Source: Candidatus Bathyarchaeota archaeon
GTDB taxonomy: Archaea > Thermoproteota > Bathyarchaeia > Bathyarchaeales > Bathyarchaeaceae
Length of the DNA: 64,000 nucleotides
NCBI GenBank assembly: GCA_963697165.1
Contig: CAVOMX010000011.1
Span: 1-64,000 of the forward strand
Direction of reading: 5' to 3'
Every line of letters starts with the position of its first letter. The stretch's first letter is position 1. Made by a program: the position numbers. Positions 18,001 to 64,000 of this stretch are shown here, piece by piece.

Positions 18001-21000
18001 AGAGGAAAACGCCCGGTTTGTGAGCGAATCAAGGATAGGATATGGAAGGGCAATAAAAACAGGAATAGACCATGCAAAGGGCGATGTATTGGTGATAATA
18101 GACGCCGACGACACATACCAAGCAGATGCCATAGACAAGCTAGTCCAACCGTTACTGAAGGGCGAGGCTGATGTCTGCTTGGCTTCAAGACTTGGAGGAA
18201 CCATCTTACCTGGGGCAATGCCAGGCATGAACTTGTTTGGAAACCGAATGTTCACATCAATGTACAACGTGATTTATGGACAAAATGTCACCGATACACA
18301 GACAGGATTTCGGGCATTAACGAAAAAAACGATTGAATGCCTAGACTTGCACTCGGATGGCATGGGTCTTTCAACAGTTTTTCTAACAGAAGCTGCGAAG
18401 AGAGGCTTTAAAATCACAGAGTTTTCCACAGTCTACCGACCAAGAGACGACAATAGTCGATCCAAATTGAACAGATTAAAGGCCGGATGGGAAATCCTCA
18501 GAATTCTTTTATTTGGACAAGCCTAAATGTAAACAGGTTAGCTCACCGTTTCAGGGGATGATTAGGTTGAAGAGAGATCAACATAAGAACTTCATGGAAA
18601 AGAAAATCAAGAGAACAGGAAAGGGCACGAAATCCGGTTCATACAGCAGTGAAGAAAAAACAATAATTATTACAATTTTGGTAGCGCTTGTTATTATAGG
18701 TGCGCTCTTAGTAAATCTTGTATTCTTCACGCCCGTAGAAACAGAACCGTTTTCCGCGATATATTATCTAGATTCAGAAAAACAGATAACGAACTTGCCA
18801 AAAACGGTAGTTTTGGGTGAGAACAGCACGTTCTCGTTATGGGTTGGAGTTGAAAACCAGAATTACACAATGATTGATTATCAAGTGTGGATTAAGATGG
18901 ATGATGGAAAAGGACTGTTGAATCATACTTCAACAGAATACATACAAAGTTTTGAGAAAACATTAGCACACGGAAAAATTTGGGAGTTTCCGGTAACGAT
19001 AAACATAGAACAACTGGGACTCAATAGGATTAGCTTTGAATTACGGTTCTTCAATGGAACGGCGAATAAATTTCAATATTCAGGAAAATGGGTCAGCCTT
19101 TCAGTTGAAGCACTTTAAGCAAGTTGAAGCAAAAACTTGTAAACAGAAGATGATGCGCCTAAAGGGTGAATAGAACATTCTACATTTTGGGTCATGTGAA
19201 CCTTTTTTTCGTTATGGAATCGCTGGCTTTTTGGAAAGATTAACTAATGAGTGTCTCCTTAGATTCCAGTCATCAACTGGGGAATTGCTTTGAAAGCATT
19301 CAAGGAACAAGAAGTTGTGGTTACTGGCGGCGCTGGCTTCATAGGCTCTAGCCTCTGTAAAACACTGCTAGAGCAGGGCGCCAAAGTAACTGCATTCGAC
19401 AATTTATATTCAGGAAAAATCGATTTGATAAAAGACCTAATGGATAAGGGCCTCAACTTTGTGCAGGGCGACATAAGAGACCCAGAGGCAATAGAGAAAG
19501 CAACAAAGAATTGTAAAGTCATTTTTCATCTGGCAGCCCAAACAAGCGTTCCATTTTCTATGGAAAATCCCAAAGAAGACAGCGAAATTAACGTTATTGG
19601 AACATTGAATGTCCTTGAAGCCACCAGAAAAGCTGGCGCCAAAATGCTCTTCACGTCATCATGTGCAGTTTATGGCAACCCAGAGAAAAGACCGACACCT
19701 GAAACATATCCGACACATCCAATCGCGTTCTATGGGTTAACAAAACTGCTTGGCGAGAACTATTGTCGGTTCTACCAAGAAACTTATGGTTCAGAAGTTG
19801 TTATGTTCCGCATATTCAATGTTTATGGCCCAAACTGTCACGGTGCAATATACGATTTCCTCAACAAACTGCGGAAAACACCCGACAAATTGGAGATTCT
19901 GGGAACAGGAAAACAATCCAGAGACTTCGTCTATGTATCGGATATGGTAGATGTACTACTCAAGGCTGCAATTACTCCTGAAGCTGCAGGACAAGCCTTT
20001 AACATTGGCACAGGAACAACAACCTCCGTGGCAGAGTTAGCGAAGATGATTGTGGAGATTCTGGGATTGGAGAATGTTGAGATATATTTCAAAGGTGGAC
20101 AAGCGTGGGCGGGAGACATGGATATAACATTGGCAGACAACAGCAAAGCAGCGAACATATTGCAGTGGAAACCTCAAGTGAGTTTGAGGGAAGGACTGAA
20201 AAAATTAATAAGCTCAAGAAGATATTAGGCTCGATTTAAATGGTTTCGCTTAAGAAAAGGCTGAAAGCCGTTATTATGCTTCTTCGGCCACCTTACTGGC
20301 TCATGACGGGCGGGCTCTCAGTTTTAACAATGTTTACTCTGTGGAGAGGCTTGCCAGAAACTGATCTATTGGCATTAGTTGTTTTGTCAGCAATCTGCAT
20401 TAGTTCTGGCGGTTTCGCGTTCAACGATTACATTGATCAAGAATCAGATGCAATCGTCAAAAAGAACAGACCTATTCCTTCAAAAAGTTTAGCGCCGTGG
20501 CATGCTCTTCTGGCAGCTGTAATTTTGTTTACCATTGGACTATTAGCAGCCCTAAGAATCAACTGGCTGTGCTTTGGAATTGCTCTCATGGATATTGTTC
20601 TTCTTGTAGCGTATTCTAGGGTTATAAAGAAGTCTGCCGGTTTCTTCGGAAGCTTTCTCATGGGTTTTCTTATAGGAACATCGTTTGTTTATGGTGAAGT
20701 TGCCCTGTATGGAACTTTCACAGTTACTTCTTTATCTTTGTCGTTTATGAGCATGGGCAGTATCGGCGGAAACATATTGCGGGATGTATTAAGTTTAGAG
20801 GGAGACCAGAAAGCGGGTTATGCCACCTTGGCAGCTAAGAGTGGTCCAAAATTCGCCACTAAGGTTGGAGCTGTTTTCTTCTTGCTCAATGTAATAGGCT
20901 CCCCAATCCCTTTTCTAGTGGACGCAGTCGGTTATGCATACTTGATTCCGATAATCATCTGGGATATAATACTCGTCATTTCAGGATTTTCTCTCCTCAA

Positions 21001-63000: not shown

Positions 63001-64000
63001 TTAACTGTGGTTGGAGGTCCTCATGGAACCGTAGTGCCAGTAGAATTCTTGGAAGCGGCAAAGAATGTTGACATTGTAGCAATCGGTGAAGGCGAATACA
63101 CAATGTTAGACATTTTAGGGTTCTTTGAGGGAAACAAGAAAATCAATGATATACAGGGGATTGCTCACCGTATGGCGGGTAAGGTAGTGTTGAATTCGCC
63201 AAGAGAATTTAACAAAAATTTGGATGTGTTGCCGTATCCTGCTTACCATTTAGTGAATATGGAAAAATATCTTAATCCTAAAACGATAGAATATCGCAGT
63301 TTTAAGAAAAGAGCATTATCGATGGTGACCAGCAGGGGATGCCCTTTCAATTGTAGCTTCTGTTCGGTTCATCTGCACATGGGAAAGACGTTTAGAGCGC
63401 ACTCGGTAGATTATGTTGTAGATCATATTGAGCATTTGGTAAACAAATACCACGTTAAGACGATATACTTTGAGGATGACAACCTCACATTTGACATACA
63501 GAGATTTGAGGCAATTTGTGACAAGATCATTGAAAGAGACATCAAATTCCAGTGGGAAACACCGAATGGAGTAAGGGCAGACTATTTGACGTTAGATCTT
63601 TTGAAGAAAATGAAAAAGACAGGATGCCAAAGCGTTTTTGTTGGCGTCGAATCTGGTGACCAGTATGTTTTGGATAACATAATTGGTAAGAGCCTCAGAT
63701 TGAAGAATGTGGTCAAGTTTGCTAAGATGTGCAAGAAAATTGGGCTGAGAACTGGGGCTTTTTACATTATTGGTTTTCCCGGGGAAACGAAAGAAAACAT
63801 GAGAAATACTGTCGAGTTTGCCCTTATGTTGAAGAGAAAATATGATGTTGGCATGCACCTTCTTTTTGCAACTCCGTCATACGGCACAAGACTGTACGAT
63901 GAATGCAAGAAAAATGGGTATATCCGAGGCAGTTTGACGCCGAGGGCTTTTGCTGAGGTTAGACAAAACTGGGGATTGCCGTTGATAGAAACCGAAAAAT

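Follow-up and report, generated by a model that had tools for sequence, protein, structure and literature searches.

Gene content of the locus

The window analysed here was the whole stretch of 64,000 nucleotides from the genome of a sediment archaeon, and it contained an island of approximately 45 kb (Table 1). Profile searches identified seven genes at contig positions 43301-64161 with both the B12-binding (PF02310) and the Radical_SAM (PF04055) domain, which were named p1 to p7. There were 14 B12-binding matches in the entire genome. Of these, 11 were B12-radical SAM genes, the number given in the preliminary description of this DNA, and they were located in the island (seven), on contigs C18 and C12, and on C25 (two). 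If 11 genes were placed randomly in 1.99 Mb, simple arithmetic gave about 3e-9 as the number of 21-kb spans expected to contain seven of them. All seven proteins (447-494 aa) had the features of class B radical SAM enzymes, namely an N-terminal B12-binding domain, a radical SAM domain behind it, and exactly one CxxxCxxC motif, at residues 200-229. None of the seven reached an NCBIfam equivalog cut-off, and the top models (BchE, HpnJ, ApyD, and the P-methylases) all scored far below theirs.

Three of the seven genes had previously been described as pairs of ORFs, each pair representing one split gene. This was correct for p2 and p3, which had a single break each, but not for p4, which had three breaks. 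For Radical_SAM genes, the earlier figure was 14 between positions 16000 and 92000; our count up to position 64161 was 13, and a scan of 11 ORFs in 64001-84000 yielded no such gene.

The stop codon of the UbiA-family gene overlapped the start of the tetraether lipid synthase gene by 4 nt. The top NCBIfam models of the former were prenyltransferases and GGGP geranylgeranyltransferases (152-167 bits, under their cut-offs). The latter was Tes according to the NF045702 equivalog model, and its orthologues were present in five of five same-genus genomes with 80-90% identity. The profile searches also recovered the CobS, CbiZ/CbiS-like, PEMT/ICMT, AhbD-like radical SAM/SPASM (three), and HemN/HutW-like (two) genes of the preliminary description. 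The gene that it had called CobD was found to encode CbiB, since two NCBIfam models for this enzyme scored above their cut-offs, and the actual CobD and the CobY-like gene were additions to its list. Thus, all families of the archaeal cobinamide salvage set (CbiZ, CbiB, CobD, CobY, and CobS) were found in the window, with CbiB and CobD above NCBIfam cut-offs and CobS, CobY, and CbiS above Pfam cut-offs only.

The direct neighbors of the paralogues in this window were cobamide, methyltransferase, and redox genes, and none of the paralogues adjoined Tes or the Gms-like gene, which was 8.3 kb away from p1 and 15-29 kb away from the others. The p1 gene and the C-type radical SAM/SPASM gene were arranged head to head. 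The island was flanked by genes for large surface proteins of the beta-propeller and beta-helix types.

Table 1. Features of the island in contig coordinates, with the supporting matches (rSAM, radical SAM).
Feature	Position	Strand	Evidence and remarks
UbiA-family prenyltransferase, probably DGGGP synthase	20240..21097	+	PF01040 109.7 bits
Tetraether lipid synthase Tes	21094..22590	+	NF045702 equivalog 506.7 bits (cut-off 450), E 5.9e-152
HemN/ChuW-HutW-like, second copy	24798-26086		split
CobS	26102-26941	+	PF02654
CobY-like guanylyltransferase	26938-27579	+	PF12804; NF045495 102.9 bits, under cut-off
CobD, L-threonine-phosphate decarboxylase	27587-28726	-	TIGR01140 291.5 bits (cut-off 290.55)
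Three glycosyltransferases (GT2, GT2, GT4)	29583..32568	+	PF00535 twice, PF00534/PF13439
Gms-like rSAM/SPASM (A-type)	33572..34985	-	Radical_SAM, SPASM (PF13186); split into 33903-34985 and 33572-33931
HemN/ChuW-HutW-like rSAM	35262..36569	+	PF04055, PF06969; TIGR04107 201.7 bits (cut-off 400)
PEMT/ICMT-family integral-membrane methyltransferase	37954..38664	+	PF04191 37.1 bits, PF04140 24.7 bits
AhbD-like rSAM/SPASM (B-type)	39958..41031	-	TIGR04545 residues 15-352, 213 bits (cut-off 500)
CbiZ adenosylcobinamide amidohydrolase, CobZ-like tail (CbiS-like)	41995..43158	-	PF01955 179.6 bits; NF038002 138 bits (cut-off 250)
p1 B12-rSAM	43301-44644	-	447 aa; deep separate clade
AhbD-like rSAM/SPASM (C-type), 82-aa N-terminal extension	44645..45997	+	PF04055, PF13186; TIGR04545 residues 83-417, 225 bits
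CbiB adenosylcobinamide-phosphate synthase	49088..50074	+	NF002281 295.2 (cut-off 273), TIGR00380 248.7 (cut-off 165.9)
p2 B12-rSAM	50210-50698 + 50785-51588	+	1 frameshift near 50669
p3 B12-rSAM	53226-52720 + 52658-51840	-	1 frameshift at 52738
RnfD-like membrane protein, 4Fe-4S dicluster tail	54369..55570	-	PF03116, Fer4 families; split
p4 B12-rSAM	56280-57583	+	3 pieces within 56355-57583, 3 frameshifts
p5 B12-rSAM	57718-59115	+	465 aa
Class I SAM methyltransferase	59145-59885	-	PF08241
Aldo-keto reductase, 4Fe-4S tail	59940-61031	-	PF00248, Fer4 families
p6 B12-rSAM	61093-62487	-	464 aa
p7 B12-rSAM	62677-64161	+	494 aa; window holds up to 64000

Relationships of the paralogues and of the Gms-like gene

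In the phylogenetic tree, p5, p2, p3, and p6 formed an 11-row clade (support 99/98) that was nested within the clade of a single-copy Bathyarchaeia homologue, and p1 and the p4/p7 clade were placed outside of it. The p1 gene grouped with its orthologues from G005, a closed congeneric genome, and from family f9 (99/98); these orthologues had 50-67% identity and occurred in genus g1 and in 9 of the 12 f9 genomes. The G005 genes 465k and 460k were the orthologues of p2 and p4, respectively, and p7 was sister to the p4 clade (100/99). The p6 protein was 57-70% identical to p2 and p3, and this type had three copies in g1 genomes and two in f9 genomes. The best 120 homologue clusters of p5 were 72-100% identical to it. 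Every paralogue type was also present in f9 (8-9 of 12 genomes), with a p2/p6 duplication as the one genus-restricted exception, and p7 was found in 9 of 25 genus genomes and 8 of 12 f9 genomes.

Garcia et al. (PNAS 2024, PMC11214058) defined Gmm by E<=1e-65 to the Thermococcus guaymasensis protein, a length of at least 400 aa, and a position in a Gmm clade that is distinct from the outgroup MoeK5. When compared with a Methanopyrus sp. homologue, which can serve only as a proxy for that reference, p2, p3, p5, and p6 had 37-39% identity (E 4e-94 to 6e-106) and p1, p4, and p7 had 31-32% (6e-68, 2e-69, and 1e-60, respectively). Since the family was very large, with 20,811 representatives at E<=1e-30, and the best 150 homologues, including those from Chloroflexota and Sedimentisphaerales bacteria, were all 38-49% identical, an identity of about 40% says little about the substrate. 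It is the proxy together with the gene context that suggests that the paralogues are members of the Gmm family.

The same paper described Gms as an AhbD homologue with an N-terminal extension of about 100 aa (COG4001), consisting of a six-helix N-terminal domain followed by RS and SPASM domains, and Li 2024 gave a similar account; the sequence criterion was E<=1e-80 to Tg-Gms. The A-type gene was split in the window and intact in G005, where it encoded 470 aa. The AhbD model TIGR04545 aligned to residues 117-464 of this orthologue, leaving a 116-aa N-terminal extension with six helices in the predicted structure (7-15, 17-27, 37-45, 54-74, 78-86, and 88-104). The mean pLDDT of the model was 77.6, with 67-89 in the helix block, and its closest solved folds were the SPASM enzymes PqqE, SkfB, and SuiB. 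Thus, as modelled, the A-type protein has the Gms architecture (AhbD core, six-helix N-terminal domain, and SPASM), and on this comparison its gene is likely to be Gms. The B-type gene lacked this feature of Gms, its radical SAM domain starting at residue 19 with no N-terminal extension.

Linkage in other genomes and comparison with known systems

Families f11, f10, and f16 included four genomes (G048, G080, G027, and G034) in which a single-copy relative of p2/p3/p5/p6 adjoined a Gms-like gene. In G048 the two genes overlapped on one strand in an operon-like manner, and the Gms-like protein was 48% identical to the A-type protein over 458 aa. A PEMT/ICMT family member preceded this pair, with just 34% identity over 90 aa to the island gene. 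Among 10 single-copy loci inspected, the neighbor was Gms-like at one, a radical SAM gene of 494-632 aa and uncertain type at five, and only housekeeping or LarB/LarC genes were present at four. In family f9, the distance between Tes and the Gms-like gene was 3-7 kb in three of five genomes, with the B12-radical SAM genes located 6-23 kb beyond, and the f9 Tes was just 46-49% identical to the island Tes. Moreover, Gms-like orthologues were found in 32 of 36 genomes with B12-radical SAM genes vs 21 of 85 without them, an association that is inflated by kinship among the genomes. The architecture of the Gms-like protein, the adjacency in three other families, the linkage with Tes in f9, and this co-occurrence supported the previous proposal of a membrane-lipid tailoring island. 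In G005, the island was syntenic, the GT2/GT2/GT4 trio was likewise present, and the methyltransferase and aldo-keto reductase pair was also located between B12-radical SAM genes.

The closest known system was the gms-gmm(-grs) cluster of T. guaymasensis. It likewise pairs an AhbD-like radical SAM/SPASM enzyme carrying an N-terminal lipid-pocket domain with a B12-radical SAM enzyme (Gmm) acting on tetraether chains, and the overlapping same-strand genes of G048 resemble it. In contrast, the island had six or seven B12-radical SAM paralogues from three deep clades, none of which adjoined the Gms-like gene in this window (8-29 kb), and it also contained Tes, the glycosyltransferases, and all genes for cobinamide salvage. 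According to PMC11214058, gms and gmm are also clustered in M. kandleri, and there are 307 Bathyarchaeota homologues of Gmm, mostly multi-copy 'Gmm2'.

A second comparison was with Ted/Hgs and Cgm/Pgm, Gmm-homologous B12-radical SAM enzymes of the same class as the host. On their example, such paralogues are able to methylate or desaturate GDGTs. In Garcia et al. (bioRxiv 10.1101/2025.10.20.683597), Ted from Candidatus Bathyarchaeota B1_G15 is 31% identical to Gmm (E 1e-60), its gene lies beside grs and overlaps with that of an AttH-like hydratase, and Ted homologues were collected at a length of at least 500 aa. The values of p1, p4, and p7 against the Methanopyrus homologue resemble these figures, with different reference proteins. 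On the other hand, all island paralogues were shorter than the Ted homologues. No CrtC/AttH-family gene (PF07143, which we take to be the family of AttH) was found in 121 Bathyarchaeia genomes including this one (G000). In these two features the paralogues differed from Ted.

Possible functions of the island

The reading that we favor, and consider rather probable, is a conserved island of 45 kb dedicated to the synthesis and modification of tetraether lipids that span the membrane, an expanded cluster of the gms-gmm type. It builds on the observed domains, Tes assignment, Gms-type architecture, gene linkage, and co-occurrence, from which we infer all substrates and reactions. The UbiA-family enzyme and Tes would produce the diether and couple two such molecules to form GDGT, and the Gms-like enzyme would cross-link the chains. 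As Gmm-family enzymes, the seven paralogues would use a [4Fe-4S] cluster to cleave SAM, and the 5'-deoxyadenosyl radical would abstract hydrogen at an unactivated carbon of the lipid. The resulting lipid radical would then be methylated from methylcobalamin or, as in Ted, oxidized to a double bond, with a different position or substrate for each paralogue. Electrons for these reactions may come from the RnfD-like protein, a possible electron-supply component, and from the aldo-keto reductase with its Fer4 tail, the salvage enzymes would provide the cofactor from cobinamide, and the GT2/GT4 enzymes may add sugar head groups. Several observations count against this reading: the size of the family, the lack of any match at the level of an NCBIfam equivalog, the distance of the paralogues from Tes and the Gms-like gene in the window, the one Gms-like neighbor among the 10 inspected loci, and the outside position of p1 and the p4/p7 clade with their lower identity to the Methanopyrus protein.

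A narrower reading is that one B12-radical SAM enzyme of the island methylates the glycerol end of GDGT (CH2-O to CH(CH3)-O), giving butanetriol and pentanetriol tetraethers (BDGT and PDGT). Seven of the 11 genes of this type in the genome were located here near Tes, and the closest named relatives were 'Candidatus Bathyarchaeum sp.' MAGs. Class B radical SAM enzymes such as Fom3 are known to methylate oxygen-bearing sp3 carbons. To our knowledge, the only cultured BDGT producer is Methanomassiliicoccus luminyensis. According to a review (PMC12694404), subgroup-8 is the same as Baizosediminiarchaeum, and BDGTs are a biomarker of that genus after Dong et al. 2025, which, as cited there and in PMC13003381, is the published basis for BDGT production by the host genus. 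No BDGT enzyme was found in the literature searched, and a 2026 review (PMC13459092) contained no occurrence of 'butanetriol' or 'BDGT'. However, every paralogue type was shared with f9, p7 was present in a minority of the genus genomes, and the distribution across the genus and f9 genomes singled out no paralogue as the BDGT methylase. Moreover, the known relatives Gmm, Cgm, Pgm, and Ted modify chains and not the backbone, and Dong et al. 2025 may already name candidates. We regard this narrower reading as unlikely. In a further form of it, which we also regard as unlikely, the missing methylase would belong to the paralogues that are core to the genus (p1, p4, p5, or the p2/p3/p6 trio), and the Gmm-family expansion in the genus and f9 would then create their unconventional lipidome.

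Alternatively, the substrates of the paralogues could be other than lipids, for example tetrapyrroles, parts of cobamides, a different cofactor, peptides, or surface proteins, and the genes would be located here only because of a shared cobamide supply. The direct neighbors (CbiZ, CbiB, the class I methyltransferases, and the AhbD-like and HemN/HutW-like genes) are typical of tetrapyrrole chemistry, the top NCBIfam models were those named above, all far under their cut-offs, the family extends into bacteria, and surface proteins border the island. The BzaC/BzaD/BzaE proteins of the anaerobic benzimidazole pathway are similar in that class I methyltransferases and B12-radical SAM methylases occur beside cobamide genes. 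However, the BzaD model TIGR04385 gave 101-136 bits for p1, p5, p6, p7, and the radical SAM halves of p2 and p3 vs a cut-off of 450, and no ThiC/BzaF family member (PF01964) was found in G000 or five relatives (one closed and one 100%-complete). Both results argue against a BzaD/BzaE lower-ligand methylase identity. This alternative also leaves unexplained the repeated linkage with Tes and Gms-like genes across diverged families and the operon-like overlap in G048, and we consider it quite improbable.

The frameshifts in three of the seven paralogues had been a concern of the preliminary description. At least nine genes of the window were split, and the breaks were mostly outside long homopolymer runs. 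We compared contigs from four independent metagenome runs, which were 90-99% alike. An X4-run contig had an extra T behind position 50669, which restored a 464-aa frame in p2; base 52738 was missing in the X2, X4, and X7 contigs, giving a 464-aa frame in p3; and bases 56340, 56664, and 57194 of p4 were missing in three to four of the four runs, giving a 487-aa frame. All island genes were intact in G005, including the RnfD-like gene (438 aa). An essential class I aminoacyl-tRNA synthetase at 4357-6813 was also broken, into four ORFs, which argues for assembly error rather than gene decay. Thus, the splits in p2, p3, and p4 are probably assembly errors, and a decaying cluster in which these paralogues and several neighbors are pseudogenes, as the number of split genes and the position of the breaks might suggest, is very improbable.

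The value of the observation is lowered by the earlier publication of multi-copy Bathyarchaeota homologues of Gmm and by the candidates that Dong et al. 2025 may already name. BDGTs serve as a biomarker for an archaeal group that ranks among the most abundant in marine sediments, with no enzyme assigned to them in the literature searched. The island offers a limited set of six core candidates, together with a likely Gms. Intact orthologues are available in the closed genome of the same genus, and the expression systems used for Gmm and Ted offer a route for these candidates. Even if no paralogue makes BDGT, the island would be an example of one enzyme family diversifying to tailor archaeal membranes.

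Composition of the island and integrity of its genes

According to the preliminary description, seven genes for B12-binding radical SAM enzymes (B12-rSAM; here p1 to p7) were located between 43301 and 64161, and the genome encoded 11 of them. The ORF listing and the Pfam scans bore out the first count, and a whole-genome scan bore out the second, since 11 of its 14 B12-binding matches were B12-rSAM genes. In this assembly (1.99 Mb, 25 contigs, 81% complete), 7 of the 11 genes lay inside 21 kb, for which our own arithmetic gave a chance expectation of about 3e-9. One CxxxCxxC motif was present in each of the seven paralogues. 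None of the seven passed any NCBIfam equivalog cut-off, and their top rows (BchE, HpnJ, ApyD and P-methylase models) each stayed below 60% of the threshold.

The neighbours reported earlier were recovered with Pfam and NCBIfam as well, namely UbiA, Tes, rSAM/SPASM, HemN/HutW-like, PEMT/ICMT and cobamide genes. The UbiA and Tes genes overlapped, and Tes scored 506.7 bits against the NF045702 cut-off of 450; its second-best NCBIfam row was the radical SAM (seleno)protein TrsS. The island contained three AhbD-like rSAM/SPASM genes, two HemN/HutW-like genes, three glycosyltransferase genes and a single gene for a PEMT/ICMT membrane methyltransferase. Additionally, the cobinamide-salvage set was complete in the window (CbiZ, CbiB, CobD threonine-phosphate decarboxylase, CobY-like and CobS).

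Features of the island and of the adjoining parts of the contig
Feature	Position	Strand	Assignment
Synthetase	4357-6813	-	class I aminoacyl-tRNA synthetase (tRNA-synt_1 + Anticodon_1)
UbiA	20240-21097	+	UbiA
Tes	21094-22590	+	NF045702
Gms-like gene	33572-34985	-	rSAM/SPASM
ORF, 383 aa	38792-39943	+	no Pfam or NCBIfam match
p1	43301-44644	-	B12-binding then radical SAM domain (Pfam)
p2	50210-51588	+	B12-binding then radical SAM domain (Pfam)
p3	51840-53226	-	B12-binding then radical SAM domain (Pfam)
ORF, 223 aa	53442-54113	-	no Pfam or NCBIfam match
p4	about 56280-57583	+	B12-binding then radical SAM domain (Pfam)
p5	57718-59115	+	B12-binding then radical SAM domain (Pfam)
p6	61093-62487	-	B12-binding then radical SAM domain (Pfam)
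p7	62677-64161	+	B12-binding then radical SAM domain (Pfam)
Surface protein, 958 aa (past the window)	64368-67244		PQQ-type beta-propeller

Between the Amidohydro_3 and CbiB genes there was a 1.3-kb stretch (47770-49087) with a single ORF of at least 90 aa (95 aa), compared with a gap of about 80 nt in G005, a closed genome of the same genus. The GC minimum of the window (0.366) fell in bin 48001-50000, and scanning the window, this stretch included, for Rfam families and tRNAs gave no match. At the position in G005 corresponding to an island ORF without family match, there was a 210-aa ORF that also lacked one. Further along contig C11, at 70380-72683 (6380-8683 of locus L003), genes for an MtrH-like methyltransferase and for a small corrinoid protein were accompanied by a second copy of CobS.

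At least nine genes of the window were split, and most of the break sites lay outside long homopolymers. The essential aminoacyl-tRNA synthetase gene was broken into four ORFs, which argued for general indel errors in the assembly; the most extreme AT skew of the window (-0.286) was found in bin 4001-6000. Logan contigs of four metagenome runs (X1, X2, X4 and X7), 90-99% alike, were compared with window 50000-57700. For p2, an X4 contig had one extra T behind 50669; for p3, base 52738 was missing in X2, X4 and X7; and for p4, bases 56340 and 57194 were missing in all four runs and base 56664 in X1, X2 and X4. When these differences were applied by script, the frames extended to 464, 464 and 487 aa, respectively. 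Moreover, the island was fully syntenic in G005 (one contig, 2.15 Mb) with all genes intact. Thus p2, p3 and p4, described earlier as frameshifted, were indeed split in this assembly, but since the run contigs reopened the frames and the G005 genes were intact, the splits in the window were most likely assembly errors, or at most private to this MAG. A contrary result came from the RnfD-like gene, the frame of which stayed closed after deletion of base 55053 alone, and the 223-aa ORF did not become longer after indels at 53332 and 54103.

Linkage of the Gms-like gene, Tes and B12-rSAM genes

Gms has been described as an AhbD homologue with an N-terminal extension of about 100 aa making a hydrophobic pocket (available text of Garcia 2024, PMC11214058), and in the model of Li 2024 this extension forms a six-helix domain. 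The Gms-like gene of the island fitted this definition, as checked on its intact G005 orthologue. Namely, the AhbD model covered residues 117-464 of this protein, and its AlphaFold model (mean pLDDT 77.6) had six helices within residues 7-104; the solved folds closest to the model were SPASM enzymes. Among 121 Bathyarchaeia genomes surveyed, which came from 68 genera and had a completeness of 80% or more, full-length orthologues with 42-56% identity were found in 53.

In four genomes from three families (G048, G080, G027 and G034), the Gms-like orthologue adjoined a single-copy B12-rSAM gene. The tightest gms-gmm-like unit was that of G048, where the two genes overlapped by 23 nt; its locus (L028, contig C20, 6989-10715) carried genes for a PEMT/ICMT methyltransferase, the Gms-like rSAM/SPASM protein (503 aa) and the B12-rSAM protein (469 aa) on one strand. 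We considered the methyltransferase as a conserved partner and rejected it, since the window gene and that of G048 shared just 34% identity across 90 aa, too little to establish orthology.

In family f9, Tes was 3-7 kb from the Gms-like gene in three of five genomes, and B12-rSAM genes followed after another 6-23 kb; f9 Tes was only 46-49% identical to the window Tes. Within the genus itself, Tes lay 15-30 kb from the B12-rSAM cluster in four of five genomes and on a separate contig in the fifth. A second Tes paralogue (41-43% identical) was encoded elsewhere in four of five same-genus and all five f9 genomes. The Gms-like gene occurred in 32 of the 36 genomes that had a p5-family match and in 21 of the 85 others; the genomes are related and not independent, so these counts overstate the association.

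Of ten single-copy B12-rSAM loci, one had a Gms-like neighbour and four had no lipid-related neighbour. A gene for a 494-632-aa rSAM protein was adjoining or near in five of the ten (L024, L025, L026, L029 and L031). This protein, also encoded in our genome (C22:33601-35175), had only a weak B12-like N-terminus and may be a homologue of the GDGT ring synthase (Grs). In L022 (G051) and L031 (G086), LarC-like (Ni_insertion), LarB-like (AIRC) and DegT aminotransferase genes were directly upstream of the single-copy gene.

Relationships and distribution of the paralogues

The tree, rooted on a longer rSAM family, comprised 35 rows. The window contributed 7 of these, the rest of the same genome 5, G005 6 and an f9 genome 4, and the remainder were 10 single-copy homologues and 3 outgroup rows; further homologues of these genomes were left out. 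In this tree p1 to p6 had one-to-one partners in G005, and p7 had none and was sister to the p4 clade (support 100/99). A group of p5, p2, p3 and p6 (11 rows, 99/98) fell inside the single-copy homologue clade, and p1 and p4/p7 branched deeper than that clade. The mutual identity of p2, p3 and p6 was 57-70%.

Across the 121 genomes, orthologues of p1, p5, p6 and p7 (50-73% identity) were confined to the genus and to f9, where 8-9 of 12 genomes had them; neither of the two genomes of the sister genus g13 did. Many other families had one B12-rSAM homologue each, 36-44% identical. For p5, orthologues (57-84% identity) were present in 15 of 18 other genus genomes examined, and 50-63% identical ones in 9 of 12 f9 genomes ruled out restriction to the genus. 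On the other hand, p7 was found in 9 of 25 genus genomes (our own counted), with 79-87% identity, and genes 62-73% identical to it in 8 of 12 f9 genomes; such patchy occurrence could reflect gain or loss of the gene, or its transfer from one lineage to the other.

The family as a whole was broad, with 20,811 representatives at E<=1e-30, and identity to the G048 protein was 38-49% throughout the best 150. Organism names were looked up for 30 representatives and obtained for 9; the named members included one Chloroflexota bacterium, one Sedimentisphaerales bacterium, and archaea of Sulfolobales, Thermoprotei, Geothermarchaeota, Thorarchaeota, Freyarchaeota and a Methanopyrus sp.; neither Thermococcus nor Methanomassiliicoccales was among these nine. 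A search of the ESM Atlas returned generic B12-rSAM clusters only. Compared with the Methanopyrus sp. homologue, p2, p3, p5 and p6 were 37-39% identical (4e-94 to 6e-106), and p1, p4 and p7 only 31-32% (1e-60 to 2e-69). With this homologue as a proxy for Gmm, the paralogues are candidate members of the Gmm clade. The available text of Garcia 2024 (PMC11214058) reports 307 Bathyarchaeota Gmm homologues, most of them several 'Gmm2' copies per genome.

Candidates for Ted and Grs were sought as well. TIGR04190 was abandoned as a stand-in for Grs because it stayed below cut-off in the Sulfolobus acidocaldarius control. PF07143, taken as the AttH family and thus as a pointer to Ted, had no match in the 121 Bathyarchaeia genomes, and a 527-aa B12-rSAM protein of contig C25 was rejected as Ted since it had no AttH neighbour. 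A phage-type integrase and a tail-sheath-like gene stood beside its gene (C25:62000-81900, L001), and 11 kb away a 490-aa B12-rSAM gene adjoined TiaS.

Possible functions of the island

The earlier proposal of a membrane-lipid island was supported, with moderate confidence, by the Gms-type architecture, the adjacency of Gms-like and B12-rSAM genes, and the Tes linkage in f9. The genes directly flanking the paralogues in the window were cobamide, methyltransferase and redox genes, which counts against a lipid function. The breadth of the family with its bacterial members, the lower identity of p1, p4 and p7 to the Methanopyrus protein and the scarcity of Gms-like neighbours at the single-copy loci count against it too. 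With lower probability, the paralogues may act on a non-lipid substrate.

That one of the paralogues makes butanetriol tetraethers (BDGTs), as the preliminary description also suggested, appears rather unlikely, although the chemistry is reasonable, since methylation of sp3 carbons is a reaction of class B radical SAM enzymes, with Fom3 as a precedent. Its premise that the genus makes these lipids can now be cited. Among the matches listed, p5 and the Gms-like gene had their nearest named homologues in 'Candidatus Bathyarchaeum sp.' MAGs; strain M17CTs has been named Ca. Bathyarchaeum tardum. In the available text of a review (PMC12694404), subgroup-8, including M17CTs, is Baizosediminiarchaeum, and BDGTs are its biomarker (Dong et al. 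2025, as cited there). However, no paralogue was singled out, every type was common to f9, p7 was patchy within the genus, and the known relatives modify chains. The literature searched named no BDGT enzyme: BDGTs appeared only in the introduction in the available part of bioRxiv 10.1101/2025.10.20.683597 and were absent from the text of a 2026 review (PMC13459092); Dong et al. 2025 and the Garcia supplements may bear on priority and clade assignment.

Lower-ligand tailoring of the BzaD/E type was not supported, since p1, p5, p6 and p7, as well as p2 and p3 in their rSAM halves, scored 101-136 bits against a cut-off of 450, and a search of this genome and five relatives turned up no ThiC/BzaF family gene. 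A role in membrane lipids is the reading that we favour, and we consider the island, with moderate confidence, to be an expanded cluster of the gms-gmm type.
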